A stretch of 64,000 nt of DNA from Candidatus Woesebacteria bacterium (GTDB lineage Bacteria > Patescibacteriota > Microgenomatia > UBA8517). Location: NCBI GenBank assembly GCA_963716475.1, contig OY970314.1, positions 354,981 through 418,980 on the forward strand, given 5' to 3'. Positions 19,055 through 36,565 of the stretch are shown here, piece by piece. Every line of letters begins with the position of its first letter. The stretch's first letter is position 1. The position numbers and the translations under genes are program-made. Under the pieces are notes generated by a model. That model did not search any database, was not told the DNA's origin, and saw only the letters and a program-made list of their open reading frames with translations.

Positions 19055-19138
19055 GCCGAGGTGGCGAAATGGTATACGCAAGGGCCTTAAGAGCCCTCGA
19101 GTGCATAACTCATGCGGGTCCGAGTCCCGCCCTCGGCA
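19055..19138 (+). tRNA. tRNA-Leu(TAA); integration target (attL) of the downstream element
   Basis: GCCGAGGTGGCGAAATGG...AGGGCCTTAAGAGCCCT with a long variable arm then GCGGGTCCGAGTCCCGCCCTCGGCA. The 3' end is repeated at 35858..35886. Confidence 0.75.
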
Positions 19139-20723
19139 CAATACGGGATTCCTGATCGGCAAAGACCCGATTTTGCCATACATACGACATATTCTCAGGT
19201 CCGATCCATTTATTGTTTTCCATCACACTGTTTTGAGCTTCCTTGAAGTATAGAAACACGTTATTCGGTTTAATTTCAATCTTTTTGTCCTTTATTTTCA
19301 GGTCCGATCCGATTATTTTCAAAACCATCTCCCGAGTGTAAGCATCGCCAGTATCAAAAATTTTTAGTACATTCTTTGAGAAGTTTATCGCATTGTCGAG
19401 AACCTCTCCCCACATGGCAATCCTCTTGCTTGTTTGTTGTTCCTTGAGTACCTGCTCACGCATCAATAATTTCGACTTTTTGGCCTCATAGGTATCATTA
19501 TCAATAATTCCGTCTATTTTCATTCCATAGAGTTTTTCCTTTCTTTCGTCAATGTCATTAAGTTCTTTTGTGATTGATTCTCTTTGTTTTATTGAAAAGT
19601 TAAACTCCTCATTGTTCCGGCGTTTCAGGACTTTTCTGAAGTATTCGGCAAACTCGGGATTAAGTTGTAGTTGGGAAACATATTCTCTGATTTGTTTTTC
19701 AAGATCTGCTGCCCTCAGGTACTTCGAATCACAAGGACCCTTTTTCTTCGTACAGTGATAATGAGTAAATATATGAGAAGTTCCATTCTTATAATGTTTG
19801 GTTTTTCTCTCTCCTGTTATGGACGCGCCACAGGGACATTTGAAGATTCCCAAATAAGGGATTGGATCAACCAAAGAATTGGGAGATCCGGCGTTCTTTG
19901 AATCAAGAAGCTTTTGAACCCTTATAAACTCAGACATTGTTATCATTGGCTTATGTATTCCTGGGTAAGTTGTTCCAGAATAGACAAAGTTACCGGTATA
20001 GAAAATGTCCCGAAAAAATCTGAAAGCCACAGTCCTAGATATAGGATTGCCCTTCTTCCCGGTAAGTGCCATTGAGTTCATCTTTTTGAGTATCTGTGGG
20101 ATCGTATAGTGCCCTGTAAGCATCATCTCCCACGCTTTCCGACAAAGACTCCATACTCTTTCATCAGGAACAATATACCTTGCCCCCTTCGGGAATTGAG
20201 GAGTATTGGAATAACCCAAAGGTGCGTTACCGGGATATTCTCCTCGCTCTGCCTTTAATTGAAGTCTGGCTTTGATAATCTTGCTTAATTTGTTTGAATA
20301 CTCTTCATTGAAAAGACTTTCGACACCTGCTTTGAGAATGTTATTTGTATCATAGACGTCGGTCGGGGTTATGATTAGAAGTTTTCCTTGAGTGATAAGG
20401 TCCCGGCAAATACCGTTCTCTTCGCCATTTCTTCCGATCCTGTCCATATTCGAAGTGACAATCGTATCTACTTTGCCCTTCTTGACCAACTCGATCATCT
20501 TGAAAAACTCAACTCTAACATCAGCCTTCCAACCGGTTTTTGCTTCTATAAATGGAGGCGCGATTAGTTTGATTCCTCTGTCCTGAATGATTCTTTTGCA
20601 GATAGTAAGTTGATCCTGAAGCGATAATATCTGCTTATTTTTATCCTCTGAACTCTTCCTACAATAAATGACACCTTGCATATTACCTTCTTCCATAATT
20701 GTCCTTTCCAAGGGGGTTGTCAA
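19110..20723 (-). CDS. large serine recombinase (integrase)
   Basis: N-terminal resolvase domain with GVIYCRKSSEDKNKQ (catalytic Ser), a recombinase domain and the zinc ribbon CPCGASITG...HYHCTKKKGPCDSKY. Its 3' end overlaps the tRNA-Leu 3' end. Confidence 0.8.
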   Translation of the reverse strand: MTTPLERTIMEEGNMQGVIYCRKSSEDKNKQILSLQDQLTICKRIIQDRGIKLIAPPFIEAKTGWKADVRVEFFKMIELVKKGKVDTIVTSNMDRIGRNGEENGICRDLITQGKLLIITPTDVYDTNNILKAGVESLFNEEYSNKLSKIIKARLQLKAERGEYPGNAPLGYSNTPQFPKGARYIVPDERVWSLCRKAWEMMLTGHYTIPQILKKMNSMALTGKKGNPISRTVAFRFFRDIFYTGNFVYSGTTYPGIHKPMITMSEFIRVQKLLDSKNAGSPNSLVDPIPYLGIFKCPCGASITGERKTKHYKNGTSHIFTHYHCTKKKGPCDSKYLRAADLEKQIREYVSQLQLNPEFAEYFRKVLKRRNNEEFNFSIKQRESITKELNDIDERKEKLYGMKIDGIIDNDTYEAKKSKLLMREQVLKEQQTSKRIAMWGEVLDNAINFSKNVLKIFDTGDAYTREMVLKIIGSDLKIKDKKIEIKPNNVFLYFKEAQNSVMENNKWIGPENMSYVWQNRVFADQESRIVPRAGLGPA

Positions 20724-20892
20724 TAGACTGAGTATTTAGCTCGGACCTGTCGAGTGATTCAAGAAACATAATCATTCGGGATGCCTGATCCTCACATTCT
20801 TCAAGTGTCAAATCAAGGTTGTAACATTTCTTGCAAAGCGCCTGAAATTCAAGAACTTCTTCGTGGTTTAGGTAGCCTGTTAGATATCTCAT
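20683..20892 (-). CDS. small hypothetical protein immediately upstream of the recombinase (candidate directionality factor/regulator)
   Basis: 69-aa ORF with position-based inference only. Confidence 0.25.
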   Translation of the reverse strand: MRYLTGYLNHEEVLEFQALCKKCYNLDLTLEECEDQASRMIMFLESLDRSELNTQSIDNPLGKDNYGRR

Positions 20893-20899
20893 TTTTTTC

Positions 20900-22642
20900 T
20901 CAATTTGTATCGTTTAAAATTTCCTCAAATTCCTTGAAATAATCGGATACAAATTTGTCGTCTTTTTGTATTTCTGATTTTTCAATAAATAGGTTGTCTT
21001 TGAACCTGACAACTTTCTTGGTACGCATTTCTTCGAAATCTTTTTTGGAGGCTTGCTTTAAGATGAAATTGTGGCTGTCGATAAACTTTCCGATTTCCTC
21101 TACCCACTTATCTATTTTGGACGTTAAATCCACTTCGTAAACTTTGGATAATTTTTCAAATAAATCTCTAAAAATTAACAGTGTGGAATAGTATTTTTTA
21201 AGTTCTTCAGTGGTGTTTTTAATTAATTCGTTTAGGCTATTGTCTTCAAATTCTATAACCCTTTCTCCATTTACCTCAGTCTCTTTTACAAACTCCATGA
21301 GCTCAATGTAATTCTTGATTCTGGCTATGGTTATTTGGGAGAAATTAAGGGCAAGTGGTTTACCATCTTCGTCCAGATTGGTGATCAAAAGTTCCCGGTC
21401 CAAATGTACCCCTTTTTGTTCCGGATCGTCATCTGCGTACAAAATTCCCAAGTTCGGATCGTAGCGGTCCACGTACTCATTGTGTTCCGCAATAAACTGA
21501 TAATTCCCTTTGAAGGCATAAAGACTATTTCCGGTGACAATATCTCCTTCCTTACTCATTTTTCCGGCAGAAATGAGGCTATCTAATGCGTTTTTGGATT
21601 TGGTTTTGGCCTTAATCCATTCCTTAAAGATAACATCTGAGGATGATTTGGTTACTCCGTTACAAGTTACAGTCTGTGTGGATTTAAATAGGGGCACATA
21701 TTCATCCAATAATCCGTTATCTAACCATTCCAGACAGACGGCTTTTAATTCCGAATCAACTGTTGTTTTGTGTTTGGCGGCATAATCATTAATGGCTTCC
21801 GCTATATTTTCAGCGGTATAGTCTAACAATGCTTCTTCAGGAGTCAGTTTCTTATCTTCCGATACCGCATCAAACGCTTTTTTAAACCTTTCCTCCTCCG
21901 GCAATGTATCCAGTTTGATCTTTCGTTTGTTAATCCACTTCTTAACAACTTCCTTTATGGGAATTGAAGCAAAATAATGCCAGAATTGATACTCCTTGGC
22001 GTATTGATTGTAGGATTTTTTAACAATCAGGTCTGCTAACTTGTTATTATCATCGGCTGTTAGTTTTTCCTTGCCGTCAAAGAGATTTGCAATTGCCTCT
22101 TCCTCGTCCAAATAATCAGTTTCATATTTAGCATCAGGGAAAAGAATTAATAAATCTTCTTGAAGCTCCTTACTTAAACTCTCAAAACCCAGTTGATATA
22201 CGGCGCGATTATAATCTAATCCTCCTTCTAATTTTACCTCCCGTTGTTTTTTGATTATCTCTAGAGCTTGATCAATCTTTACAAGCTTGATGTCATCCAA
22301 TCTTTCAACCCATCTTTTCAATTCCCTAAAAGCCGGGTAAATTAATAAAAAGTTGCTTATTTGTTTTTCCTGGAAAAAAGTAATTTGTGCATTTAGAAAT
22401 ATGGTCTGGGCATCGAGTTCAGCAAATCCGATTGTTCTCCAGCCTCTAATAAAAAGGTTATACTCTTTGACTTCGTAATTGTTCTTTGGTGTCCAACCTT
22501 CAGTTAAAGTATGTTCTTCTGCCTCGCTAAGTACAGCCTTACCAGTTTTTTGTTTCTCCATATAATTGTGAACAACAAGGAGAACTCTCTCTTTTGGAGT
22601 TAAGTTTTCTGAAATCCTAGCTAGATTTAAATCTTTTGACAT
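20900..22642 (-). CDS. hypothetical protein (580 aa), element cargo
   Basis: Long, acidic, Lys/Glu-rich ORF with no recognisable motif. Confidence 0.4.
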   Translation of the reverse strand: MSKDLNLARISENLTPKERVLLVVHNYMEKQKTGKAVLSEAEEHTLTEGWTPKNNYEVKEYNLFIRGWRTIGFAELDAQTIFLNAQITFFQEKQISNFLLIYPAFRELKRWVERLDDIKLVKIDQALEIIKKQREVKLEGGLDYNRAVYQLGFESLSKELQEDLLILFPDAKYETDYLDEEEAIANLFDGKEKLTADDNNKLADLIVKKSYNQYAKEYQFWHYFASIPIKEVVKKWINKRKIKLDTLPEEERFKKAFDAVSEDKKLTPEEALLDYTAENIAEAINDYAAKHKTTVDSELKAVCLEWLDNGLLDEYVPLFKSTQTVTCNGVTKSSSDVIFKEWIKAKTKSKNALDSLISAGKMSKEGDIVTGNSLYAFKGNYQFIAEHNEYVDRYDPNLGILYADDDPEQKGVHLDRELLITNLDEDGKPLALNFSQITIARIKNYIELMEFVKETEVNGERVIEFEDNSLNELIKNTTEELKKYYSTLLIFRDLFEKLSKVYEVDLTSKIDKWVEEIGKFIDSHNFILKQASKKDFEEMRTKKVVRFKDNLFIEKSEIQKDDKFVSDYFKEFEEILNDTN

Positions 22643-22643
22643 T

Positions 22644-23063
22644 TTAATGTTTTGAAATTGAGCGTTTGCGTTCCAAAAGAACGCTTTCTACCATCTCTAC
22701 CCGTTGGTTCAGATTGGAGGCTTCTAGGGCCTTTAGGATGTGGCTGGCGAGGTATCCTACGGTGTTAGCGATATTTGGGGGAATCTCACCGCTCCGGACG
22801 CCATTTATCGTGCTTTCAAGAAGGGTGGCCACTTCTGTCGGGTCTTTAATGCTTAGTGGTTCAAGATTCAGTTCAACCTTTTTACTGGCAAGGCCACCTC
22901 TGACAAGCGCCATATGTCTTTCGACTTCTACGTCTGGATTGTGGACAAAACAGTACACGCTCCCTTTCATGGATGCGGCACCGCATTGATCTCCGTTTTC
23001 TTTTATATAACTGCATTTTTTCTCTTCCATATAAGTTACGCTTATGGGGTGTACCCCCCTCAA
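22644..23063 (-). CDS. hypothetical Cys4 (zinc-finger-like) protein
   Basis: CSYIKENGDQCG...CFVHNP gives four Cys in the N-terminal 40 aa. Confidence 0.35.
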   Translation of the reverse strand: MRGVHPISVTYMEEKKCSYIKENGDQCGAASMKGSVYCFVHNPDVEVERHMALVRGGLASKKVELNLEPLSIKDPTEVATLLESTINGVRSGEIPPNIANTVGYLASHILKALEASNLNQRVEMVESVLLERKRSISKH

Positions 23064-23143
23064 ATTTGATATACTATTGTTTAGTTCTTTTTGCCTCCTA
23101 GTGGGTTCAGTTCCTAGTAGATTGACTAGGAGGCAATACAGAA

Positions 23144-23707
23144 CTACTCCTTTGTTATAAAAGGAGATTCCCCGTCAAAGATAAGATCCAGGTTGATCTG
23201 CTCTAAACGCTCATCAACCAGTTTTTGCATTTCCTTTGACAGCTTTACCTTTGGTTGGGGTAAAAGGGAATACTTAACGTCCATAGGGGAAGTCCCGTTT
23301 GTACGAGTGATCGTTACATCGTAGTCACGAAGATCTCCCCACGCTTCTGAATCCTCAAGACCTTTCATAAGCCTCTGCAATCCCGCTTGGGTCAACTCAA
23401 GGATCTGAACGTCTCCAAGTTCTTTATTTAAAACGACAAACATCCAAAAATGCTTTCCTCTGTTGCGCGGATCCGTTGCATTTCTTATCTCATCCGGAAG
23501 CTCATCGTATGTTCTAACACGAATTGGAGTTCTCTTTTTACCTTCTTCTTTCCAGTATTCAAAACCAACGATTGCGTTAGTAAGAACCCTGAAAGTGCTA
23601 TCGCCTTCATCAAACTTCATGTAGGCTGATCTGCTTTTTGGCATTTCATAGTCTTTGGGTAATATGCTCATATTTTTCTCACCTCCTTTCCGCTGTATAA
23701 AAAGCAA
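23144..23707 (-). CDS. hypothetical protein
   Basis: 187-aa ORF with no confident family. Confidence 0.35.
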   Translation of the reverse strand: MLFIQRKGGEKNMSILPKDYEMPKSRSAYMKFDEGDSTFRVLTNAIVGFEYWKEEGKKRTPIRVRTYDELPDEIRNATDPRNRGKHFWMFVVLNKELGDVQILELTQAGLQRLMKGLEDSEAWGDLRDYDVTITRTNGTSPMDVKYSLLPQPKVKLSKEMQKLVDERLEQINLDLIFDGESPFITKE

Positions 23708-24033
23708 TACTTATTAAATTGAACTGAACTTTCTAATTTGAGCTGGTCCTTAACGGTCCAGGGTTCCGAGACGCCGAAGAGTGCTTCAATGTTGTTGATT
23801 AGAGGAAATATTACTTCAGCCTTATAAAATTCATGTTTTGGTTTGGAGCTTCTGATATAGGGAAGTGTGTATTCACAAAAGCTTTTGAACGTCTTTGTTG
23901 AGATAATTTTGTCAAATTCAATATATATTTTTGTGACATTTTCATTCTTGATAACAATTGCGTCAGCGTTCCTGTGGCAATAAGAACTAAGTACCTCGTC
24001 GCAGTTTACAAATTTGGTTACTAGGTATTTCAT
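23668..24033 (-). CDS. hypothetical protein
   Basis: 121-aa ORF overlapping its neighbours by a few codons (operon-like). Confidence 0.3.
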   Translation of the reverse strand: MKYLVTKFVNCDEVLSSYCHRNADAIVIKNENVTKIYIEFDKIISTKTFKSFCEYTLPYIRSSKPKHEFYKAEVIFPLINNIEALFGVSEPWTVKDQLKLESSVQFNKYCFLYSGKEVRKI

Positions 24034-25730
24034 ACGGGTTCGACCTCACTTTCTACAGGAAACATATTTTGTGATGCCTCCACGCCTTTCTGTGGCTGAA
24101 TGGGAGCATCGGAAGCACGGGAAGCATCCTCCGAGTTGCCAGCATGGTCTGTGTTTGTATCTGGCAACTTGTCAGCTACCCGTTGATTTGCTCCCATTGC
24201 CTCCATGCTTCCATTCTGGGGCTGGTTTTTCATGGAGGCATTTTCATTTACGGAAGCATTTTTTGTTTTCTTGAGGGTGATCGTGTTATTGGTAATTTCC
24301 TCGCCGTGGGTTACAGATATGCCCATCGCCGCAAGATTGGTTTTAATAAGATTTATCTTTCTCCAAAGCCATGTTGCAGATTTAGGGAACCCGTAACTTC
24401 CTCCAACTTCGAGTTTGTCTGCTGTAGCAAGTTTGGATAGTTCGGTAAAAAGGTCTGAGCTTGCCCCTGACCAGTCGTTATGGATTGACATAAACTCCAG
24501 AATTGTTTGGGCGACAGGGGAAGCGTCAATTGCAGCCTTATTTTGTCTGGCAATATTCTTTTCAAAAGCCTGTAAAAATCCATCAACTTCATATCCCAAA
24601 GAAACAGCTGCTGCGGCAGCTACTCTAGCGTAATCAGCCATACGGGGTCTGGTAGGAAGTTTAATATCCTCCTTAATCTTTAGAACCTGAGAAGCTATGT
24701 CAAAGAGGGCTCCAAGGATCTGGGGTTTTTCTTTTTCAAAATCATTCCAGAATTTAGTTTCTTCTCTGCGGTTTGAGTCACTGATTCTTTCAAGAGTAAA
24801 GATCAAACTTCGGTCAAGCAAATCAGCCTTCTCGGCTACCAGGTTTATTCCGTTTAGTCCAACTGCCACCAATAACTCAAATATAATATCGGAATCATCT
24901 GAGAATAATTTCCGTTTTGAAAAACCTAAACCTGTCACAAACCCGGATAAAGAATCCGAGCCTTCAGTTGAGAGGTAACTTAAATTATCAAAATACAGAC
25001 AATAATGGTGACTTGCCATTTGTGTCAGTTCATCTATGGCAGACCTCATCTTCAGTAGGTCAACACGGGAAGGGTCAATTAGCTTTCTGATGACACGGAG
25101 AAGGGTTGATTTCGCGCTGCCTTGCTCTCCTGTCGCGATTATCATTGCCCGAGGGATATCGCAGAAGAGAATAGCCACAAGATAAGTCAAAAACAAAATC
25201 TTGTCCTCGGAGTTTTTGAGGTTAACATACTCGAGTATTTTGCTCAATGCACCGCCTTTTTCAGGAATAGACTGAACCTTTTGATGAGTAAATCGTCGAA
25301 ATAGCGGCGCTTTTGCTTTTACAACTTCCCAGCCTGAGGGAGTTATCTCAACAATGTTGACGTCATCTCCAATATCGTAGGAGATAGTTTCCTCAATTTT
25401 AGCTATGCGATTAAAGAGTGATATTTTTATGCCTTCGTGTTGAGATTTTCCTTCCAATGCAGCCATAGCCTGAGAAAAGATTTCACTGGAAAAACCTTCA
25501 TTAAAAGCTTCCCAATAAACTCCTGAAACCCATCGTCTGAATACCGCACCGGAAACGGAGTAACCAACCGCGGGCCTATCTGGTAACTGTACTTGGGGTT
25601 CGCCAAATTGATCCAAAAAGAACTTGCAACCTCTCTTTAGCACCAGTGTTATCAATATGTCGCCAACTTTCTGCTGTTTGACTAATTCATTAGCCGCTTT
25701 GTCGAGTACTTCTTTATTTTTAGCTTTCAT
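24030..25730 (-). CDS. P-loop NTPase of the phage/plasmid primase-helicase (D5/VirE/P4-alpha C-terminal) type
   Basis: Walker A IIATGEQGSAKSTLL and Walker B HHYCLYFDNL. Lies immediately downstream of a CHC2 primase zinc-finger gene. Confidence 0.55.
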   Translation of the reverse strand: MKAKNKEVLDKAANELVKQQKVGDILITLVLKRGCKFFLDQFGEPQVQLPDRPAVGYSVSGAVFRRWVSGVYWEAFNEGFSSEIFSQAMAALEGKSQHEGIKISLFNRIAKIEETISYDIGDDVNIVEITPSGWEVVKAKAPLFRRFTHQKVQSIPEKGGALSKILEYVNLKNSEDKILFLTYLVAILFCDIPRAMIIATGEQGSAKSTLLRVIRKLIDPSRVDLLKMRSAIDELTQMASHHYCLYFDNLSYLSTEGSDSLSGFVTGLGFSKRKLFSDDSDIIFELLVAVGLNGINLVAEKADLLDRSLIFTLERISDSNRREETKFWNDFEKEKPQILGALFDIASQVLKIKEDIKLPTRPRMADYARVAAAAAVSLGYEVDGFLQAFEKNIARQNKAAIDASPVAQTILEFMSIHNDWSGASSDLFTELSKLATADKLEVGGSYGFPKSATWLWRKINLIKTNLAAMGISVTHGEEITNNTITLKKTKNASVNENASMKNQPQNGSMEAMGANQRVADKLPDTNTDHAGNSEDASRASDAPIQPQKGVEASQNMFPVESEVEPV

Positions 25731-26338
25731 ATTTGTAATTTGCTAACAATCTCCATAAATCCCATTTCCGGGTTAGTCTTTTGCATAAAATCGATTGCAT
25801 TGTTGCCATGGGCGGCACAGCCAAAACAGTGCCATGAACCATTCGGATAAATGTAAAAAGAAGGATTACGTTCTTCGTGGAATGGGCAAGCTACACGAAA
25901 CTTGCAACCACACGGCCTTGCGTCAGGAATCAAATCTTGAGTCGGGTACTCCCTTGCTTTTTGGACCTTGGCGCTGGTAGTATATTTAACTCCTGGTTCA
26001 TAGCCGGAGAGCCGTAGCCAGTATTTTAACCACTTTTTAAAGTTTTCTTCATGTAGTTCGACTGAACATTCCAACACTTTTTTGTGAAAATCGCTGAGGG
26101 GTTTGGCAGTTTTTATTTCGGCAAAAAATTTTTCCCTATCTGCATACAGTTCTTTAATTTTGGCTACGGCAACATCTTCGACGCAACTCTTAAATTCTGG
26201 TTCAATAGGAATGTACCGCGGTGGATTTGTTACTTTCCTTTTGAATTTAAGTGGGAAAGCCGTGTGGTTTATAACGAGTTGAGGTTGGCTATCCATAAAT
26301 TTGTTCACTGAAACCCAATCGATTCGAGATGTTTTCAT
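25727..26338 (-). CDS. CHC2-type primase zinc-finger protein
   Basis: C-terminal CPFHEERNPSFYIYPNGSWHCFGCAAHGNNAIDFM matches the DnaG/primase CHC2 zinc finger. Confidence 0.6.
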   Translation of the reverse strand: MKTSRIDWVSVNKFMDSQPQLVINHTAFPLKFKRKVTNPPRYIPIEPEFKSCVEDVAVAKIKELYADREKFFAEIKTAKPLSDFHKKVLECSVELHEENFKKWLKYWLRLSGYEPGVKYTTSAKVQKAREYPTQDLIPDARPCGCKFRVACPFHEERNPSFYIYPNGSWHCFGCAAHGNNAIDFMQKTNPEMGFMEIVSKLQI

Positions 26339-26345
26339 AATTTCT

Positions 26346-26612
26346 TTATGTTTGTTGATACAATTTGTCCTTTAATTGTTTTATTGCCATCACAAATTTA
26401 CGAACATCAACCATAGACTCCGGTGAGTCCTCCGATGAATAATTGAAGTTTTGAAGTAATCGCTCACGTTCTGGAGTATCTAAAAAAACAAATTCGGAGC
26501 GTCTTGAATCAGTACGATCTATGTTGACAAGTTCCAACCCTTTGGTAAAAAGGAAAGCCGCAACATAAAAGTTGCTTGTTTTAAAATATCTGTCGTCACT
26601 TTTATCCTTCAT
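26346..26612 (-). CDS. hypothetical protein
   Basis: 88-aa ORF with no motif. Confidence 0.3.
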   Translation of the reverse strand: MKDKSDDRYFKTSNFYVAAFLFTKGLELVNIDRTDSRRSEFVFLDTPERERLLQNFNYSSEDSPESMVDVRKFVMAIKQLKDKLYQQT

Positions 26613-26943
26613 ATGCGATTAGTCCTAAAAATTCGATGGGTGTCGCGGATTCCAATAGATACTCGCCGTTTTCTTCTCGGAGGATCTCTGAAAAAGTCAG
26701 ATGATTTGTATCAAGAAACCTCTTCTTTCGATAGGCTGCTTTTATTAAATCTCTAATCTTGTTATTCAGAATATTGTTTACGAAAGTCGAGGCTGAAGCG
26801 TACATGGGATTAAACAGATTGCCCTTAAGCCAAAGGTGAATCCGAAGTTCCTGGGCAACATCTTCCCAGTCCATATTGGGAACCTGGGCCTTGATGGCCT
26901 TTGCTACGATAACATTCTCATATTTAGAAAAAATTATACTCAT
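26602..26943 (-). CDS. sigma-70 region-2-like protein (minimal ECF-like sigma factor; no region 4 detected)
   Basis: DWEDVAQELRIHLW...FNPMYASASTFVNNILNNKIRDLIKAAYRK resembles ECF sigma region 2. Confidence 0.4.
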   Translation of the reverse strand: MSIIFSKYENVIVAKAIKAQVPNMDWEDVAQELRIHLWLKGNLFNPMYASASTFVNNILNNKIRDLIKAAYRKKRFLDTNHLTFSEILREENGEYLLESATPIEFLGLIAYEG

Positions 26944-27148
26944 ATCTATTGAAGGACTCTTGGAGTGGTTGAGGCCAATAAAAAAGGGCTCTCAATCAAC
27001 CCCAATATGTCCATAATTCATATTGGAATCAATTGATAGCCCTTCTTATCGCTACCTGGGTTAGCCTTGTTAGCTAACTATGTAAATTATACCATAAAAC
27101 CTAAAAACTTTTCGGGTTTTTATCCCCTCTATAGTAATATACGACAAT

Positions 27149-29074: not shown

Positions 29075-29136
29075 AAAAAAACCCGTTTATCACGGGCAGT
29101 GTAATATCTGTATTTTACGCCTTTCCAAATAAAACG

Positions 29137-29997
29137 CTACTTAGCTGGAGATGCTTTATTCAAAAATTCTGAAATAATATTTACCGGAATTATTACGCCA
29201 AGGTTTTGATAGTTGCCAGTTAAAACAGCTGAAGGAATTCCAACCATGCAATCATTTTGATCAACAGCAAGCCCTCCTGAATTTCCATTATCTATATTGG
29301 CAGACGTTAGGATATCCCCATCATCAGAAAAACTACTTATGATTCCGTCTGTAATGGTTAGATTGTATCCGCCACTTGTAACTGGATAACCATAAATCCT
29401 AACTGCGTCACCCAATTTTGGACTATTGTTTTTGCAACTACTAGGGAACACAAAAGCAGAAAAAGTTTTAGGGTAGGTACCCCAAACCTTCCCGTCCGAA
29501 TCCTTATAAGCAGAGGTTACTACCAATACTGCCATATCATATTGCTTACTCAATTTAGGAACAATATATGGCTCTGCATTGTAGATTTCAGCGGGGGCAC
29601 CAGTATTTGGGTCAGGCAAGCTAACCAAACAGCCTTTTGAACCAGCTATAACATGATTGTTTGTTAATATCGTTCCGTCCGTTAACCATATTGTTCCTGA
29701 TCCTCCTTCTTTGTTATCGCAAAATACGTTGACAACAGAAGATGCTACATTATACGGTACGGTCGGGCTAGGTGACCCACCAGACGGTGTGTTGGAATTG
29801 GGAGAATTTTGAGAGTAGGCAATTATAAAAATTACCAATAGTATTAAAAAAACTAAAATTAATCCCTTTCTACGTTTAATCCACCCGCCTAAACGGTACT
29901 TCAATCTTGAGAGTCTCCTCCATACGATTTTCTGCCCACAATTCGGGCAGAATCTTTCATCCGACTTAATTTGATTGCCACAATTTTTACAATACAT
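29137..29997 (-). CDS. N-terminal zinc-ribbon + TM + trypsin-like (S1) serine protease
   Basis: MYCKNCGNQIKSDERFCPNCGQ zinc ribbon and a TM helix. Candidate S1 triad motifs LTNNHV (His), DMAVLVV (Asp) and GNSGG (Ser). Confidence 0.55.
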   Translation of the reverse strand: MYCKNCGNQIKSDERFCPNCGQKIVWRRLSRLKYRLGGWIKRRKGLILVFLILLVIFIIAYSQNSPNSNTPSGGSPSPTVPYNVASSVVNVFCDNKEGGSGTIWLTDGTILTNNHVIAGSKGCLVSLPDPNTGAPAEIYNAEPYIVPKLSKQYDMAVLVVTSAYKDSDGKVWGTYPKTFSAFVFPSSCKNNSPKLGDAVRIYGYPVTSGGYNLTITDGIISSFSDDGDILTSANIDNGNSGGLAVDQNDCMVGIPSAVLTGNYQNLGVIIPVNIISEFLNKASPAK

Positions 29998-30008
29998 AAT
30001 AAACTTTC

Positions 30009-30383
30009 TTAATCCTCTCTCATTCCGATTGTTGGAACAAAGCGCCCTATGTTATTAATAAGGTATATTGGCGTAAGAAAAAAAGAAATCATACCCCACC
30101 ATCCAAGGAAAAGCGTAGTTAGAGTCCTCTTTTTAAACTCACGATTTATACATTTTTTACAAAGATTGCCTTTTATAGACGAACTCTGACGCATAACCAG
30201 CATGCCTATATTTTGGTAAAACTCGACATATTTTGTTGGAGTAAGGCTGCCACACACCTGACAATGGTTATTAGTCGGTCCAAAAACCGGCGAAGAGGGA
30301 TTATTCTTATTAATTATTGTTCCACAATGCTGACAGAAGTTGTTGCTTTTAGGATTGCTTTTTCCACATTTTTCGCAGAACAT
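30009..30383 (-). CDS. zinc-ribbon membrane protein (paralogous N-terminal DZR-like domain)
   Basis: MFCEKCGKSNPKSNNFCQHCG plus further CxxC pairs and a C-terminal TM helix. Confidence 0.45.
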   Translation of the reverse strand: MFCEKCGKSNPKSNNFCQHCGTIINKNNPSSPVFGPTNNHCQVCGSLTPTKYVEFYQNIGMLVMRQSSSIKGNLCKKCINREFKKRTLTTLFLGWWGMISFFLTPIYLINNIGRFVPTIGMRED

Positions 30384-30509
30384 AATCTTTGAGAAATTTG
30401 CCTAAACTACCCCCAAATTGAATTGTACTCTAAAAATAAATCCATTTCTTAGATTTTATTGAAAAATAGGTGTAGAATCAATTTGGTTGGGTAGTCTAAA
30501 ATAAATAAT

Positions 30510-31133
30510 ATGTACTGCAGTAATTGTGGGAAACACAACTCCGAAGGCAGTAAGTTTTGCGAACACTGTGGCTCACAGCTTATAAAAGACTCTGCAGAAA
30601 ATAAATCCGTTAGCCAGGCTAAGGCTGTAGTTGATCCCCCAAAAACAGAAAATAAGGAGCCTTTGCCAAAAGATAAAAAAGTAAATGCTGGACTTGGGGG
30701 CTGGTTGGCATTAGTTGGACTAGGAATGATCGTGGGGGTTGTTTGGCAAAGCTACAGCATATTTGGATATTTTTCCTATTTATCAAATACTTATACTATT
30801 CCTGGTTACTCAAGTCTTTTATGGTTTGAGTTTTTAATAGGAGTCGCCTTTATAGGTTCTCTTGTTTATCTAATCTATTTATATTTCAAAAAGAAGAAGA
30901 ATTTTCCGAAATACTATGTTTTTTATTTAATCGCCTCTATAGTTTTTGCATTATTGGATTGGCTCTGGGTAGCTTCATTACAGGCTCCGACTCAAGAACT
31001 TCAAAAAATACTAAACGACACGGTAACGCAAAATTCAAGCAATGTATCCCGAACCGTAGTGCAATCAGTAATTTGGATTTTGTATATGTTAAAGTCGAAA
31101 CAGGTTAAGGCAACTTTTATTGAAGATAAATAA
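30510..31133 (+). CDS. zinc-ribbon membrane protein (paralogous N-terminal DZR-like domain)
   Basis: MYCSNCGKHNSEGSKFCEHCGS followed by 4 TM helices. Confidence 0.5.
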   Translation: MYCSNCGKHNSEGSKFCEHCGSQLIKDSAENKSVSQAKAVVDPPKTENKEPLPKDKKVNAGLGGWLALVGLGMIVGVVWQSYSIFGYFSYLSNTYTIPGYSSLLWFEFLIGVAFIGSLVYLIYLYFKKKKNFPKYYVFYLIASIVFALLDWLWVASLQAPTQELQKILNDTVTQNSSNVSRTVVQSVIWILYMLKSKQVKATFIEDK

Positions 31134-31141
31134 ACTAAACT

Positions 31142-31741
31142 ATGAAAATTATTAAGCAAGTCGTCTATGTTGTAGCAGCGCTGGCAGCATTCGGTTTGGT
31201 CAGGTGGGGTATTTCAGCTCTTCAAACTAACAATGCCAGTAATAACACTGCCAATTATTTTACAAATGAGACTTGGCAACCATTTAACTCAACAGAAGGC
31301 GGTTTTAGTATTAACTTTCCTAAATATCCAACAACCAATCCCTCAGAAACCCAAAGCACGGGTGGTGTGACCTACGTTTCTACACAATATAGCGCCGAGG
31401 GCAGTGACGGAGATAGTTATGTTGCTATTTACGGTTATTACCCAAATCTTTTATCAAATAAATACAATGCAAAAAGTGGAATTGAAGGTAGCATTAACGG
31501 TATGGTTAGCTCAGATAAATCGAACCAGTTAATATCCTCAAACTTTGTGAATGTCGGTAGCCATCAGGGAGCGGATTACGTAATTTACAATAAAGACGTG
31601 GCTTCTTATTTGAGAGGAAGAGTAATTGTTGTTTTAGAAGGAAGTAATCCTGTCAAAATATATATCCTCATGGATGCGTCAAAAAACGCAAACGCCACAG
31701 ACAACTATACAAAATTTATTAACAGTTTTGAGATTCAATAG
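31142..31741 (+). CDS. secreted hypothetical protein
   Basis: Signal/TM N-terminus with a Ser/Asn/Thr-rich body. Confidence 0.4.
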   Translation: MKIIKQVVYVVAALAAFGLVRWGISALQTNNASNNTANYFTNETWQPFNSTEGGFSINFPKYPTTNPSETQSTGGVTYVSTQYSAEGSDGDSYVAIYGYYPNLLSNKYNAKSGIEGSINGMVSSDKSNQLISSNFVNVGSHQGADYVIYNKDVASYLRGRVIVVLEGSNPVKIYILMDASKNANATDNYTKFINSFEIQ

Positions 31742-31742
31742 T

Positions 31743-31762
31743 TAGTGAGTTGGAGTGGGGGG
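31743..31762 (+). repeat. intergenic motif TAGTGAGTTGGAGTGGGGGG (copy 1 of 4)
   Basis: Same motif at 32688..32709, 34949..34965 and 35753..35770, all in plus orientation. Confidence 0.5.
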
Positions 31763-31807
31763 TATTTCTTAGGTTTTCCTGAAAAAGTGGTGTAAAATCG
31801 ACTTGTT

Positions 31808-32671
31808 ATGAGTAAAGGGAAAGCTCGAACCAAAAAATCTCAAAAAGTTAGCGAAAAAACCACTATTTTCTCCACTTCGGCAAAGTATCTAATGGCCATA
31901 ATTGTTGCTCTTGGTTTTGTTGCGGCATTTTCTGTATATGCAAAAGCCCAATTGGAAAAAAGTCCTTTTCTCGCAAGCCCAACACCAATTGCTCTCCCCA
32001 CCTTCACACCTATCCCCGTGACACCCACGCCTACAGTTGATCCTAACCCGATAATTACCTGCAATATCAATGTCAGTTGTGGGGGTGGTTCAAAACAATT
32101 GAGACAGAGTGTCTGTAACAACATGATATGTTGCCTCTACAGTACTGAGTGCGGTGGGCCAAAATTTGTAGCAAAGAGTCAATGTCCTGCGAACGGGACA
32201 TGCTGCCAGGTTGGAAATAAATGGACTTATTACTTATCGAAAGATAAGTGCACACAGGATCAAAATGCTTACAATTCCAGTGTCAACCAAAACAATAACA
32301 CTTATATTCCGTCTACCTATACGCCACCAACCTACTATACGTGTACCCTTTATTATCCCGCATTAAAATTATATCAAACATACACTTCACTTTATAAAAC
32401 AAAGGCTGAATGTGATTCCGCCCAGGCTTCTCTCAACCAAGGTTCACAAACGGTTCAATATACAGCTCCCACAACAGCTCCATACCAAGCTCCACAAATG
32501 ACCAAAAGCCAGTGTCAAGCAAGTGTAAATGATAAATATGGGAGTCTTATGCGCAGTTATGGGTGCTACTATCCGTGCCCGGCCACCGGAGACTGTGGAA
32601 GCTCCTCAGTGTGTGAAGCTTATTGGTATCAAGCTCAAAAAGACATGAACAGCTGCAATCAATATCCCTAG
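31808..32671 (+). CDS. secreted Cys-rich, Pro/Thr-linker protein
   Basis: N-terminal TM segment, a PT-rich linker and more than 25 Cys. Confidence 0.45.
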   Translation: MSKGKARTKKSQKVSEKTTIFSTSAKYLMAIIVALGFVAAFSVYAKAQLEKSPFLASPTPIALPTFTPIPVTPTPTVDPNPIITCNINVSCGGGSKQLRQSVCNNMICCLYSTECGGPKFVAKSQCPANGTCCQVGNKWTYYLSKDKCTQDQNAYNSSVNQNNNTYIPSTYTPPTYYTCTLYYPALKLYQTYTSLYKTKAECDSAQASLNQGSQTVQYTAPTTAPYQAPQMTKSQCQASVNDKYGSLMRSYGCYYPCPATGDCGSSSVCEAYWYQAQKDMNSCNQYP

Positions 32672-32687
32672 CTCGATCTATTTTATA

Positions 32688-32709
32688 AATAGTGAGTTGG
32701 GTTGTGGGG
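32688..32709 (+). repeat. intergenic motif AATAGTGAGTTGGGTTGTGGGG (copy 2 of 4)
   Basis: See 31743..31762. Confidence 0.5.
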
Positions 32710-32726
32710 TTATTGTGTTTTAAAAG

Positions 32727-34892
32727 TTAATCAATAAACTCATCTAGTATTTTTAAAGCTTCTTCGGTCAAATTTTCTTTATAACTAGGTATTTCTATAT
32801 TAAATTTTTGAAAATAAATCTGATGAATAAACTTTATTAACTTCTCATCTAAATAACCGTGCGTATGAAGAGATGAGCTCTTAGCATCCTTTGACCTAAA
32901 ACCATTTAAAAATAACTTACCCATACCACAATATATGACAAAGATTTCGGTTAAAATCTCATTTTCCTGCTCGTCGTCAAGTGTAATTTTTTCCTCATGA
33001 ATTAAAATATAGTGTGCCAATTCATGAGCCAAAATATACCCAAACCCAAATGGGTCTTTTGTGAATAATTTTGGGATACTAATTTTTGAACCAGAAATAA
33101 AGCCTCCGATTCCTTGTTCCTCGAAAAACTTTGACTCTGCCATTTCTACGTCTGGTAAACTTTTCAGGTTTAGAATACGACCCAAATAACGCAGCGCCTT
33201 AAATGGATCACCCTCTTTAAGCATTGAGTAAAAAGCCCCATCTGGTTCAAAAACTGTTATCTCTTTGTTTTCCAGGACTGCATTAAGATAATTAAATTGA
33301 TTTAATACATACTGGCGAATATCTTTACCTTTTATCCCAATTTCAAATCCAGTACCACCAAAAGAAAATGTGTTCCCTTTTTGGACAAATAATTTTTGCC
33401 CACTTTCTGAATATGCCTCTAAACCTATTTCCATATCTGCTCCGACATTAACCCTTATTTCAATAACTCTGTTATTCAATGCTTGAATTTTCCATACGTT
33501 AAGGCTTTGAAAAACGTCCCCCTCTTTTGTAGTTAGGTGGATTTCCACAAATTTTGATTTGTTCTCACCTGTTATCTCGAATGTGTGATTCTTGGATGTC
33601 GGAATTGCTGAATCTTTTCTTGTCATTTCTATAAATTCACCGCCAGACAACCTTACAAGAATAGAAAATGGAATAACTTCAAGAGCAAGAAAATTTGTTA
33701 CCTTACCGGTTAGTACTCTGGAATAATTAAAAGCTCCTATAGCGAGTAATTTTTCATTTCCAAAAGCCACACCTGCTCCGACAAAAGCTTTATGAACAAG
33801 CTCTTTTATGCTTTGTTGAATAAATGAATCGCCAAGAATAATTATGCTTTCGAAATTTTTCTTTTTCTCTACTTCAAATATCTCAGAGGCCAACTTCTCT
33901 ACTGATTTAACCAGATCGTCAAAAGTCGTGGCCAAAAAGTTATGAAGTGCGCCCAGGTTAATTTTTGTATCAAGAGTTTGAAAGCTTCCATCTTTACATA
34001 GGACAAATGGTAGATTTAGCTCATATGTTTCCTCAACTTGTGACGTTTTCAGAAATTCATTGACTGCGTCTAAAATCCGTACAATATTTTTTGGGTCTTC
34101 TAACGCGAAGTTGCGAGAATCTTTGCCAATCTCGGAAATAAAAAAATCGAGCACAGTTTGCTCTATTTTTCTTCTAGTGATTGTATTTGTATATTGAGTG
34201 CCTATTGTGTACAAAACACCGTCTCCATAATTAACCAATGATACGTTTGTGTTGTCCTGGGATATAGAAACAAAAAGATATTCTGTACCCCTGTTTTTAC
34301 TATCGTTTTTTGGTTTCTTTGAAAATAATTTTTTGTATAACGGAAGTCTCGCATATTTTTGGATGGCTTGACGATCAAGATTTTTTTTCTGTTCTTCGCG
34401 GCTCAAACTCCCATGGTTCAATCTTACAAGCAAGCTGTCAATATTAGATTGACCAAAGAAGGCCGCCGGTTGGGACATTATTCTTATATCTTTTACTCCA
34501 ATTAAGGAAAAGGCTCTCTCTATTAAACTATGCCAATAATAATATTTATCATAAGGAATGGTTATACAAACATTATCAATTCCATCGTCGGGGAGATAGG
34601 TTTTGATTTTATTTAATATAGATGCAAATATAACTGCCAAGCACCTTTCAACACTTATTTGTTCCTTATCAATAACTACACCGTTCAATTCAATAATCTG
34701 GTCCAAATCATAAATTAAACTATTCTTTTCGGTAAGAAATTTATTAAAACCTTCATCGCCCGGAAAAACTTTACCGTTCACAAAAGCTAAAATGTTTCTA
34801 ACTTCATAAATTTTACAATTATCAGGATCTATTCCATTGACCAAGAACGCAGCTTTTGTGGTTTTTGTATTGAAATCAATTCCAATATTCAT
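32727..34892 (-). CDS. DnaK-like Hsp70 (nucleotide-binding + substrate-binding domains) fused to a C-terminal ImmA/IrrE-type HExxH metallopeptidase domain
   Basis: Hsp70 signatures in order: IGIDFNTKTTKAAF, ITIPYDKYYYWHSLIERAFSLIGVKDIRIMSQPAAFFG, ILGDSFIQQSIKELV, and SBD-like LEVIPFSILVRLSGGEFIEMTRKDSAIPTSK. C-terminal LAHELAHYILIHEE. Confidence 0.55.
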   Translation of the reverse strand: MNIGIDFNTKTTKAAFLVNGIDPDNCKIYEVRNILAFVNGKVFPGDEGFNKFLTEKNSLIYDLDQIIELNGVVIDKEQISVERCLAVIFASILNKIKTYLPDDGIDNVCITIPYDKYYYWHSLIERAFSLIGVKDIRIMSQPAAFFGQSNIDSLLVRLNHGSLSREEQKKNLDRQAIQKYARLPLYKKLFSKKPKNDSKNRGTEYLFVSISQDNTNVSLVNYGDGVLYTIGTQYTNTITRRKIEQTVLDFFISEIGKDSRNFALEDPKNIVRILDAVNEFLKTSQVEETYELNLPFVLCKDGSFQTLDTKINLGALHNFLATTFDDLVKSVEKLASEIFEVEKKKNFESIIILGDSFIQQSIKELVHKAFVGAGVAFGNEKLLAIGAFNYSRVLTGKVTNFLALEVIPFSILVRLSGGEFIEMTRKDSAIPTSKNHTFEITGENKSKFVEIHLTTKEGDVFQSLNVWKIQALNNRVIEIRVNVGADMEIGLEAYSESGQKLFVQKGNTFSFGGTGFEIGIKGKDIRQYVLNQFNYLNAVLENKEITVFEPDGAFYSMLKEGDPFKALRYLGRILNLKSLPDVEMAESKFFEEQGIGGFISGSKISIPKLFTKDPFGFGYILAHELAHYILIHEEKITLDDEQENEILTEIFVIYCGMGKLFLNGFRSKDAKSSSLHTHGYLDEKLIKFIHQIYFQKFNIEIPSYKENLTEEALKILDEFID

Positions 34893-34948
34893 TTTTATTG
34901 GTATTTAGAGGGCTTATGTGAATCTTAGCATCTGGGGATAAAAATAAA

Positions 34949-34965
34949 CAGTGAGTTGGAGTGTG
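34949..34965 (+). repeat. intergenic motif CAGTGAGTTGGAGTGTG (copy 3 of 4)
   Basis: See 31743..31762. Confidence 0.5.
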
Positions 34966-35015
34966 TATTCCAAAGATTTCTCCAAAAAAAGCATAGACTC
35001 TGGAAATGAATGGAA

Positions 35016-35726
35016 TTATGAAACAAATCTTATCTCAGCACCGTTTTTAATATATTTAGTAATGGTTGGTATTCCTCGTGTCTCTCCGAAAGAATCTGTA
35101 TAAATGTCCCCACCACCTTGGCGTTCAACCTCAAAACCTAAATTTTTATAATCCTCATCTTTCAAATCCCAATAACCAAAGGGGAAATCAAATAATATTG
35201 TGGGTTTCACTTTTTTATGAAAGTCTTCGTAATGTTCTTCTAAATATGCCGTGATAACGCGTGTATATTCACCACCTTCTTTTTTGATAGTTCTGTCTAC
35301 GACTCCTAGTTCAAGATAATCCTTCATTTGATCTTCGTCACCGGCCACTACTGCAGAAAATATATCGTTTTTACTGGACTCTGGTAAATAAATATCTGTA
35401 CCTCCAGAATTTTGGACAATAAAAGCATCTTCGCTGGCTAAATACACCAATTTAATAAACGCCTTCTGTGATATATTTCTATAATAATCTTTCCTCCATT
35501 TGGTTACTTCTCCCTTTGACCATTCCTTTACCGGTTTACCTTCTAATCCACTCTTAATACCAGATATTTCTGCAAATAACTTATTTTGATAAATAGCATT
35601 TGAGGCTTCTATAAAAAACTTATGTGAAGGTGTGGAGCCCCTATTAGCCTCAAGTTTTTTGATACGCTTGTCCAATACATAAAAGATATAATAAATAACT
35701 ACACCCACAATTACATAAGTCCACAT
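35016..35726 (-). CDS. hypothetical protein with N-terminal TM anchor
   Basis: 236-aa ORF with no motif. Confidence 0.4.
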   Translation of the reverse strand: MWTYVIVGVVIYYIFYVLDKRIKKLEANRGSTPSHKFFIEASNAIYQNKLFAEISGIKSGLEGKPVKEWSKGEVTKWRKDYYRNISQKAFIKLVYLASEDAFIVQNSGGTDIYLPESSKNDIFSAVVAGDEDQMKDYLELGVVDRTIKKEGGEYTRVITAYLEEHYEDFHKKVKPTILFDFPFGYWDLKDEDYKNLGFEVERQGGGDIYTDSFGETRGIPTITKYIKNGAEIRFVS

Positions 35727-35752
35727 ACTCGTATTTTACACCTTTATATGTA

Positions 35753-35770
35753 TAGTGAGTTAGGGTGAGG
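35753..35770 (+). repeat. intergenic motif TAGTGAGTTAGGGTGAGG (copy 4 of 4)
   Basis: See 31743..31762. Confidence 0.45.
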
Positions 35771-35857
35771 AATAAAGTCTCCGGTATTCGTTAAGTTCCT
35801 GAAGTTTAGAAGCTAGAATATCAGTCTCACTTGGAGTATCATTCAGATAGGCGAATA

Positions 35858-35886
35858 GGTCCGAGCCGAGTCCCGCCCTCGGCACA
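35858..35886 (+). repeat. attR-like direct repeat of the tRNA-Leu(TAA) 3' end
   Basis: AGGTCCGAG[CCGAG]TCCCGCCCTCGGCACA versus 19115..19140. A weaker third copy AAGTCCGAGTCCCGG sits at 35941..35955. Confidence 0.65.
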
Positions 35887-35961
35887 GTAAGTTCAAATTA
35901 CATAAATATTCATTTTAAACAATAAAATATAGCCTTGAATAAGTCCGAGTCCCGGAAAGAG

Positions 35962-36174
35962 TTAACCTTTGAAGTTTAAATCTTGGGCAAGCTGAGGCAA
36001 ATCTATCTTGGGAAGTTTATCTGTTTCAGCAGCGTAAGTTTGTAAATCTATTTTACCTTCGAGGTAATCTGCAGTTAATTGCCTCAGACTTCTTTCACCC
36101 GCATCTATTTCTTCAACTGTAACTCGGTGTTTCAGTACACCGATTCTTTCCAGAAGTCTTTCAGGCATTTTCAC
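35962..36174 (-). CDS. hypothetical small protein
   Basis: 70-aa ORF just outside attR. Confidence 0.3.
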   Translation of the reverse strand: MKMPERLLERIGVLKHRVTVEEIDAGERSLRQLTADYLEGKIDLQTYAAETDKLPKIDLPQLAQDLNFKG

Positions 36175-36286
36175 AATATAGATAAATTATGGTTAAATTG
36201 CAAGTTTATTAAAACCACCCATATGCTCTCTCAATAATTTAACTTCTATAAATGAAAATCTTGAGAGTCTAAATTAATATTAGATT

Positions 36287-36565
36287 CTATTTCTCAGCTA
36301 AATTACCAGGAGCCTCGTTCTTTGGTTGCGCTTTTCTAATCTGAAGCGTAGCTGAATCGTATCCTTCACAAACTTCCCCATCGCCATCCGCTACTTCTCT
36401 AAACTTGTCGGGGTATTTTTTTGCCAACTCGTGACTTTTTTTAGCCGCATCCGTAGCAATGTTTGAATAGTGTTCTGTATCTGATATGGGCAGGAAAACA
36501 TCCCCCTCCAATCCGGGGTAAACACCCGGTTTAAACGAACACAACTGTTCTAAATGTGGTGCCAT
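36287..36565 (-). CDS. hypothetical small protein
   Basis: 92-aa ORF. Confidence 0.3.
   Translation of the reverse strand: MAPHLEQLCSFKPGVYPGLEGDVFLPISDTEHYSNIATDAAKKSHELAKKYPDKFREVADGDGEVCEGYDSATLQIRKAQPKNEAPGNLAEK

Follow-up and report, generated by a model that had tools for sequence, protein, structure and literature searches.

We analyzed a 64-kb window of the genome of a Candidatus Woesebacteria bacterium (contig OY970314.1 of assembly GCA_963716475.1, positions 354,981 to 418,980; the coordinates below count from the first nucleotide of this window). Positions 19120-35886 most probably represent an integrative plasmid-like element, 16,746 bp in size, of a bacterium of the Woesebacteria/Microgenomates, from the candidate phyla radiation (CPR), that was put into the 3′ end of the tRNA-Leu(TAA) gene by a large serine recombinase. 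The tRNA stays intact because its last ~21 nt are also present on the element, and the element is predicted to be able to leave as a circle and to replicate. Comparison of the recombinase genes further indicates that the attachment site of the element (attP) is likely to be located within the recombinase gene itself, at its 3′ end, a feature missed in an earlier note on this DNA that was made from the sequence alone.

Element boundaries and the tRNA-Leu target

The target tRNA-Leu(TAA) gene is undamaged in the integrated state (Table 1). The 21-mer at its end, CCGAGTCCCGCCCTCGGCACA, is present in exactly two copies in the 64 kb, with up to three mismatches allowed, namely the common cores of attL and attR; the chance expectation is 0, and shuffled sequences gave none. 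According to a repeat finder, the similarity covers 24 nt (96% identity), and the two copies are spaced 16,746 bp apart. The predicted attP of the element is CATTCAGATAGGCGAATAGGTCCGAGCCGAGTCCCGCCCTCGGCACAATACGGGATTCCTGATCGGCAAAG, and the predicted attB of the tRNA-Leu site is CATAACTCATGCGGGTCCGAGTCCCGCCCTCGGCACAGTAAGTTCAAATTACATAAATA.

The earlier note had reported that the tRNA end recurs downstream with a 5-nt internal duplication. The recurrence stands, as 21 exactly matching nucleotides at 35866-35886, but the supposed "CCGAG duplication" (GGTCCGAGCCGAG) is the element's own P arm, which is also present in the attR of a metagenomic element (L014), in an att relic of a related genome (L008) and in an attP-like junction (L013), all considered below. 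The third copy of the repeat mentioned in the note is real but amounts to only 12 nt (GTCCGAGTCCCG; two or more matches in 1 of 100 shuffled sequences) and is probably a leftover of an earlier integration at the tRNA-Leu hotspot, comparable to the relic in L008. Neither ARAGORN nor Rfam calls a tRNA or pseudo-tRNA at the second copy (35.8-35.9 kb), in agreement with its reading as an att duplicate rather than a part of a tRNA gene. The comparison of nucleotide composition proposed in the note revealed a modest shift, with a GC content of 0.381 within the element and 0.404 outside, and a tetranucleotide distance to the host mean of 0.017 inside versus 0.012 outside (Mann-Whitney p = 3e-6).

The recombinase and its clade

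The claim that a large serine recombinase lies beside the tRNA gene, with its last codons inside the latter, was borne out, with the product being 528 aa long. The protein matches the Resolvase domain (PF00239, 6.5e-18, profile positions 2-144 of 145), the Recombinase domain (PF07508, 1e-7) and the Zn_ribbon_recom domain (PF13408, 1e-6) of Pfam, as well as PHROG 95, an integrase family (2e-65). Across 30 homologues, the residues Y11, R13, K14, S15, R61, R86 and R89 are invariant, and so are the zinc-ribbon cysteines C287, C289, C315 and C322. The database product P0001, which starts with MEEGNM, is 100% identical over the 528 aa; the longest open reading frames (ORFs) of the recombinase and of the CTP synthase have no exact database product because the start codons differ.

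The recombinase ends with VPRAGLGPA and a stop codon; the last 10 codons are encoded on the strand opposite the tRNA 3′ end, and the stop codon TGA corresponds to TCA at 19110-19112, inside the tRNA gene. The C-termini of the 120 best homologues similarly resemble translated antisense tRNA (VPRAGLGPA, ERVxGIEPx, GAGEGTRTP, or a final WCG). When the last 35 aa were compared with a set of only 33 reference tRNAs, with E-values up to 0.01 accepted, antisense tRNA matches were detected in 70 of the 120 homologues, against 4/120 and 0/120 for internal segments and 0/96 for the C-termini of the p580 family (see below). At the DNA level, the recombinase ORF overlaps tRNA-Leu(TAA) in the window, L003/L004, L014 and L094, tRNA-Gly(CCC) in L105/L106, tRNA-Gly(TCC) in L107, and tRNA-Gly(TCC/GCC/CCC) and tRNA-Thr(TGT) in the IMG/VR contigs L108-L113. 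Clade members at 37-41% identity (L105:10001-11620, L107:10001-11629 and L108-L114, at ~3001-4600) are located at the edge of prophages or contigs, and their ORFs run antisense through nearly the whole of a tRNA-Gly(CCC/TCC/GCC) or tRNA-Thr(TGT) gene.

A GpA-type terminase (Pfam) is encoded in L105-L107, and the seven relatives identified in IMG/VR with a profile of the clade all map to the ends of 29-60 kb prophage contigs; thus, the same recombinase module serves CPR prophages as well as plasmids. An IMG/VR search with the recombinase protein alone as the query gave no relatives (neither p580 nor the other backbone proteins were used as queries there), and a search with the 18-nt core returned only unrelated phages with tRNA-Leu ends. 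Directly upstream of the recombinase gene in the window is a small ORF, p69, that occupies the same position in L002, L003, L009, L014 and L094, whatever the cargo. The p69 protein has no Pfam match and belongs to no recognizable family; as a candidate accessory protein or directionality factor, it might assist recombination. We also considered p69 as an HTH_17 excisionase and ruled this out, given the lack of similarity to the HTH_17 protein of L096, an integrated relative described below.

A predicted attachment site within the recombinase gene

Read along the minus strand, starting at the attR core at the far border of the element, the frame that encodes VPRAGL in the recombinase remains open for 41 codons in the window, 43 in L014, 46 in the L008 relic and 41 in L013; the other two frames close after 11-24 codons across the four copies. 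In shuffled sequence, frames that stay open for 41 codons or more arise by chance with P ~0.05 for each copy. The four tail peptides are 44-46% identical and share the pattern SDLxxYxNDxxxEAxILxxQLxxLxxHL. In L013, the tail is fused to the recombinase in a single 554-aa protein (P0027), and the order at the junction is P arm, core, P′ arm, which is the attP configuration; no tRNA was found on this contig. Given that four elements keep this frame open across attR for 41-46 conserved codons, and that one of the four is in the attP configuration, attP can be predicted to lie within the recombinase gene, at its 3′ end. This arrangement would extend across the clade, at tRNA-Leu, tRNA-Gly and tRNA-Thr genes, with the tail frame itself read in the four copies.

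Under the proposed mechanism, the free form of the element would encode an enzyme of ~560 aa with a conserved tail of ~35 aa. Integration would shift the last ~35 codons to the far border (attR, 16.7 kb away), and the tRNA would supply GPA and a stop codon instead. Such a swap could alter the enzyme between the free and integrated states, with respect to activity, directionality or stability; among the possible outcomes are a difference in directionality, activity or half-life, or no effect at all. The further idea that there are two recombinase isoforms set by the physical state of the element, so that attP within the gene would be a built-in integration/excision switch for the entire CPR clade, is speculative, and we would sooner bet against it than for it.

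Occupied and empty sites in related genomes

In a scan that covered a single genome for each GTDB species, the 3′ part of tRNA-Leu(TAA), 59 nt in length, was found in identical form in 8 GTDB genomes, all of them Woesebacteria, Microgenomates or Patescibacteria metagenome-assembled genomes, some of the bins being mislabelled. The comparison with empty sites that the earlier note called for could be made in these genomes. In three of them (L005, L007 and L011), the site is empty, with tRNA-Leu followed after 3 nt by tRNA-Pro(TGG) and then by tRNA-Gly(TCC). Three others (L008, L010 and L012) have unrelated sequence after tRNA-Leu and lack the element, and in the remaining two (L006 and L009), tRNA-Leu is followed by the 3′ end of a homologous recombinase. 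Additional occupied sites were detected in metagenomic contigs, with recombinases at 54% (L003/L004), 68% (L014) and 83% (L094/L002). In L014, the recombinase adjoins the same CTP synthase as in the window, and the core is repeated at 7736-7753 and 923-940, at both borders of a 6.8 kb element in the same tRNA gene; the cargo of this element (FtsK_gamma, DUF6804, SpoVG) is wholly different from that in the window. A search for attR in L094, L105, L106 and L107 found none within the DNA examined.

L008 is syntenic with the window, sharing an Obg-like GTPase and tRNA-Arg on one side and PIG-L, tRNA-Pro and tRNA-Gly on the other side, and where the window has 16.7 kb, L008 has only a 137-aa ORF and the att relic. 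The tRNA-Leu site is thus polymorphic, since relatives with an identical tRNA are either empty or hold other elements of the same recombinase clade. The relic itself (L008:5025-5587, JBGPAU010000001.1) is an attR remnant between tRNA-Leu and PIG-L, with the tail frame open for 46 codons and no recombinase nearby.

Two independent Logan assemblies (L001 and L002) end exactly at the junction between the tRNA and the element, with the last 30 nt being pure tRNA sequence. Such breaks are expected of a k=31 graph if a sample contains both occupied tRNA copies and copies with other flanks. At the other end of L001, the contig break at 30667 is not explained by any internal repeat in the window.

To the right of attR, the window region 35887-37417 contains the 12-nt att-like copy, two small orphan ORFs and a PIG-L deacetylase. 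This region may be an older accretion at the same hotspot because the gap between tRNA-Leu and tRNA-Pro is only 3 nt in L005, L007 and L011. A decayed recombinase remnant was considered for f70/f92, to the right of attR, and rejected. The window as a whole is very rich in tRNA genes, with 14 identified by ARAGORN. A 20-mer, ATGGCCAAGCTTCGCTTAC, is found upstream of tRNA-Arg(TCT) at 13074-13093 and, inverted, upstream of tRNA-Pro(TGG) at 37449-37468; its orientation relative to the tRNA is the same at both sites, and the two tRNA genes may share it as a promoter or regulatory element.

Circular relatives and gene content of the element

The element contains 18 ORFs (Table 1). The protein p580 has 96 homologues, all unnamed, many of which are encoded on contigs of 8-10 kb. 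A scan of JGI metagenomes with a p580 profile yielded 194 loci, and the best 79 of the 194 were taken further. A homologue of p139, the small protein encoded next to p580, was found in 68 of the 81 loci that carry a p580 homologue. Fourteen whole contigs with the p139+p580 pair (about 7.3-10.9 kb: L018, L019, L023, L029, L030, L037, L041, L045, L053, L061, L065, L073, L086 and L090) can be considered circular because they have terminal overlaps of 118-127 nt, with the gene at differing offsets. These circles share, in addition to the p139+p580 pair, a DnaG-Toprim-DnaB_C primase-helicase, a ~315-aa tyrosine recombinase or a small resolvase, and MerR/HTH_17 proteins; some also encode ParA with a ribbon-helix-helix (RHH) protein, or a methylase-Mrr fusion. 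Six further proteins, unassigned or previously unscanned, have no match to a virion PHROG. A ~370-aa orphan that always follows p580 in the circular contigs is missing in the window element. The circular contigs are plasmids and appear to constitute an undescribed family of CPR plasmids. The element in the window shares with these free circles of 7-11 kb the p139+p580 pair and a zinc-finger protein, p203, that is related to plasmid primases and clusters with the primase-helicases of the circular plasmids; this gene sharing places it in the p139+p580 plasmid lineage, as a member with an integration module.

The earlier note's observation that virion genes are lacking was upheld by comparison with hidden Markov models (HMMs): among the 18 element ORFs, there is no Pfam or PHROGs match to capsid, portal, terminase, tail or lysis proteins. 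Structure models of p580 and p641, the two largest orphans, are confident and mostly helical, and a fold search with these predicted structures gave no HK97, jelly-roll, portal or terminase match. The missing virion matches are informative because the same Pfam models detect terminase in the prophage relatives of the recombinase. No relaxase, coupling protein or type IV secretion component was matched by Pfam or NCBIfam among the element proteins. Since no virion gene was found and the p139+p580 pair marks circular contigs with plasmid genes, "integrative plasmid" is the best label, and, of the two options in the note (an integrative plasmid-like or satellite-like element rather than a complete prophage), the plasmid-like one is retained.

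The left 10 kb of the element is a backbone (p641, the DUF5659 protein, the zinc-finger protein, p566, p139, p580, p69 and the recombinase) that is syntenic with L002/L094. Within it, residues 19-477 of p566 align at 50% identity with a 778-aa Prim-Pol/PriCT_1 fusion of L096, over the C-terminal two-thirds of the latter, which is why we consider p566 a putative helicase-type replication protein; elsewhere, its matches are at the P-loop level only. Judging by its profile matches, p187 is possibly a single-strand DNA-binding protein. In p203, no catalytic primase domain was detected, and the p139 homologue of L096 shows a weak match to DUF5763. PDB sequence searches with p580, p566 and p641, both singly and as profiles, returned nothing beyond P-loop matches, and NCBIfam and PADLOC searches with the orphan proteins gave nothing useful.

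The right 6.7 kb holds variable envelope, secreted and chaperone-like cargo. The accessory block at 29137-31133 is absent from the 83% relative L002/L094, which shares only the Cys-rich 287-aa protein of the right-hand cargo. The 721-aa HSP70-like ATPase also matches PHROG 22485, a family of unknown function, and has no PADLOC match to a defence system; among all element proteins, the sole PADLOC match was that of the S1 protease, to its generic protease domain. Thus, the cargo corresponds to that described in the note, with the CHC2 zinc finger, a weak Sigma70_r2 match, the trypsin-like protease, the zinc-ribbon membrane proteins and the HSP70-like protein all recovered by Pfam. A motif around ATAGTGAGTTGGAGTG is present in four copies, in one orientation, in the intergenic spacers of the right-hand cargo (31733-31763, 32680-32710, 34939-34969 and 35743-35773), where it may act as a promoter, a terminator or a binding site.

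An integrated relative of the backbone, of ~10 kb, is present in L096 (3752-13594, GCA_021824915.1), and also in L097 and L098. The gene order in L096 is HTH_3, a 610-aa protein, DUF5659, the Prim-Pol/PriCT_1-helicase fusion, p139, p580 and HTH_17. These three relatives have an unrelated large serine recombinase, adjoin ychF and involve no tRNA.

Table 1. Features of the tRNA-Leu(TAA) locus in the window, in order of position
Feature	Position	Strand	Comment
tRNA-Leu(TAA)	19055-19139	+	Integration target, attB side of attL; ARAGORN; Rfam RF00005 at 56 bits
Large serine recombinase	19110-20696	-	528 aa from MEEGNM; longest ORF reaches 20723
Logan contig L001	19111-30667		Contig equals this part of the window; from ERR12035932
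attL common core	19120-19140	+	21 nt, same as attR core; crossover somewhere inside
p69	20683-20892	-	Upstream of the recombinase
p580	20900-22642	-	All-alpha orphan; hallmark of the plasmid family
p139	22644-23063	-	Cys-rich small protein; directly upstream of p580 where both are detected, with few exceptions
p187	23144-23707	-	PHROG 8542 (8e-13); weak single-strand DNA-binding (SSB) PHROGs (2e-3)
p121	23668-24033	-	Conserved in L002 and L094
p566	24030-25730	-	P-loop protein
p203	25727-26338	-	C-terminal CHC2 (DnaG-type) zinc finger, Pfam PF01807 (5.5e-13)
DUF5659 protein	26346-26612	-	Pfam 2e-14; also in L002, L014, L094 and L096
Sigma-70 region-2-like small protein	26602-26943	-	Weak: Pfam Sigma70_r2 9e-5, below curated cut-off; PHROG 1740 2e-4
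p641	27149-29074	-	Orphan with C-terminal Cys4 zinc ribbons; versions of 610-674 aa in related elements
Zinc-ribbon trypsin-like protease	29137-29997	-	Accessory block 29137-31133
Zinc-ribbon membrane protein	30009-30383	-	Accessory block 29137-31133
Zinc-ribbon DUF2569 protein	30510-31133	+	Accessory block 29137-31133
Secreted 199-aa protein and Cys-rich 287-aa protein	31142-32671	+	
HSP70-like ATPase, 721 aa	32727-34892	-	Pfam HSP70 4e-20; NCBIfam DnaK; HExxH motif in fused C-terminal region
236-aa orphan protein (p236)	35016-35726	-	
Detached 3′ piece of recombinase ORF	35760-35885	-	VPRAGLGSDLFAYLNDTPSETDILASKLQELNEYRRLYSSP, then stop; predicted in frame with the recombinase in the excised (attP) form
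attR common core	35866-35886	+	P arm of the element directly to the left
Third att-like copy	35943-35954	+	12 nt
Small orphan ORFs right of attR	35962-36174 and 36287-36565	- (both)	

Alternative interpretations

The gene content could also be read as that of a phage satellite or a defective prophage, in which the orphans p580, p641 and p236 would be divergent capsid-redirecting or structural proteins and a helper phage would supply the particles. The layout with an integrase, a zinc-finger primase-like protein and a P-loop helicase resembles P4/PICI-type satellites (PICI, phage-inducible chromosomal islands), several of the replication genes match PHROGs, and the structural proteins of CPR phages can be too divergent for HMMs; however, no virion, packaging or lysis match was found in either Pfam or PHROGs, and the predicted structures of p580 and p641 appear mostly helical, with none of the virion folds matched. 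The use of the same recombinase clade by CPR prophages of 29-60 kb points in this direction as well, but the recombinase alone found no relative in IMG/VR, and those retrieved with the clade profile all come from the ends of large prophage contigs, whereas the p139+p580 pair resides on small circles with ParA partition genes and multimer-resolution recombinases, that is, plasmid features. On balance, we regard a satellite or defective prophage as unlikely.

Still less probable is a fixed, dead genomic island, with the repeat stemming from an ancient event and with a functionless tRNA overlap and open tail frame, given that none of the 18 ORFs is disrupted, the two 21-nt cores match exactly, the catalytic residues of the recombinase are conserved, and all four copies of the detached tail keep an open and conserved frame, at the low chance probability given above for each. 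Moreover, close relatives differ in the occupancy of the site and have other cargo next to recombinases of the same clade, and two independent assemblies break exactly at the junction. The att relic that L008 keeps without a recombinase and the 12-nt third copy in the window do imply that decayed remnants accumulate at tRNA-Leu, and a dead island would also fit the small composition shift and the fact that no circular junction was observed. A window with 14 tRNA genes in 64 kb, together with the acceptor and T-arm sequence shared by tRNA-Leu paralogues, might suggest that the second repeat is a degenerate duplicated tRNA gene and the interval an ordinary chromosomal segment that happens to hold a recombinase. 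We give this interpretation hardly any credence: the second repeat is not called as a tRNA or pseudo-tRNA, it has no more than the last 21 nt in common with the tRNA gene, the DNA on its left side encodes the recombinase tail and has homology to the arms of the L014, L008 and L013 elements, and syntenic relatives lack the interval.

Several points weigh against an integrative plasmid with attP in its recombinase gene. The GC shift of the element is small, and L094, the 83% relative, has no attR in the part of the contig examined. There is only one ORF in the attP form (L013), and the junction seen there would also arise from two elements in tandem; furthermore, the extension of an ORF into a tRNA gene may be put up with by the cell and serve no purpose. 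The window element has no ParA and no recognizable initiator or catalytic primase domain, so that its autonomous replication is predicted, as are its excision and circular form, and it may or may not be active at present.

Comparison with known systems

The recombinase has the same three domains as the serine integrases of phages, integrative and conjugative elements and integrative and mobilizable elements (phiC31, Bxb1, TP901-1, A118, TndX, CcrAB), namely the resolvase domain with the Ser nucleophile, the recombinase domain and the Cys4 zinc ribbon, and, like these integrases, it is encoded at the edge of the element beside the att site. The described serine-integrase systems have common cores of 2-8 bp or very short direct repeats and usually insert into, and disrupt, protein-coding genes, and tRNA 3′ ends with cores of 25-76 bp are typical of tyrosine integrases (PMC8092301, PMC5704250); the att identity of 21 nt observed here is far above the 5-8 bp given for Int-S systems (PMC8092301). 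Unlike the described serine systems, the window element targets a tRNA 3′ end, with a 21-nt identity that restores the tRNA, and its attP would be inside the recombinase ORF.

With regard to the target, the element is more similar to pSAM2 and SLP1, the tRNA-targeting integrative plasmids of actinomycetes that encode tyrosine integrases. In these elements, too, a copy of the tRNA 3′ end restores the gene, with a direct repeat of 20-odd nt, a plasmid is able to live integrated, and the tRNA is a hotspot with serial accretion; the differences are that the window enzyme is a serine rather than a tyrosine recombinase and that no conjugation or transfer gene was found. P4-like and PICI satellites likewise combine an integrase with a primase/helicase module in an island of ~10-17 kb at a tRNA gene, but no genes for capsid-size redirection, packaging or helper sensing were recognized in the window element, and its relatives are circles, some with ParA. 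In a few tyrosine-integrase phages of lactic acid bacteria, the cores overlap the 3′ end of int, so the overlap of att with the integrase gene is not unique as such.

In archaea, the "suicidal" tyrosine integrases of the SSV type (SSV1, pTN3, pT26-2) have the att site within the integrase gene, which is partitioned by integration; the int+att module is compact and moves between viruses and plasmids, and recombinases with the target in their own gene have been said to be exclusive to archaea (PMC8371274). The recombinase module described here similarly serves both prophages and plasmids. However, whereas the SSV-type gene is split into inactive halves, in the window clade only the last ~35 codons would be exchanged, with the catalytic domains left intact, and the enzyme is a serine recombinase of a bacterial host. 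In the mycobacteriophages BPs and Brujita (clusters G, N and P), attP is located in the 3′ end of a gene, and the C-terminus of the product differs between the free and integrated forms, acting as a state sensor (PMC3694055, PMC8092301); there, the gene encodes the repressor, and the tail that is removed is an ssrA-like degradation tag, whereas here the gene is that of the recombinase itself.

In full-text literature searches aimed at these subjects, we found no paper that describes CPR serine integrases at tRNA genes or CPR plasmids of the p139+p580 type, and CPR plasmids have been called rarely studied (PMC12023590). What is new is the integration module, that is, a clade of bacterial serine integrases that act in the manner of tyrosine integrases at tRNA genes and have attP in their own frame; otherwise, the element is an ordinary cargo-carrying island or integrative plasmid. 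The locus and its ~120 relatives point to a bacterial serine-integrase clade that breaks two patterns set out in reviews, through the ~20-nt restoring identity at tRNA genes and attP in its own ORF. This clade offers a testable model for the state-dependent control of a serine integrase and a source of natural tRNA-specific large serine recombinases, which are of interest as genome-engineering tools, and the locus offers a first handle on the plasmids and integrative plasmids of CPR bacteria.

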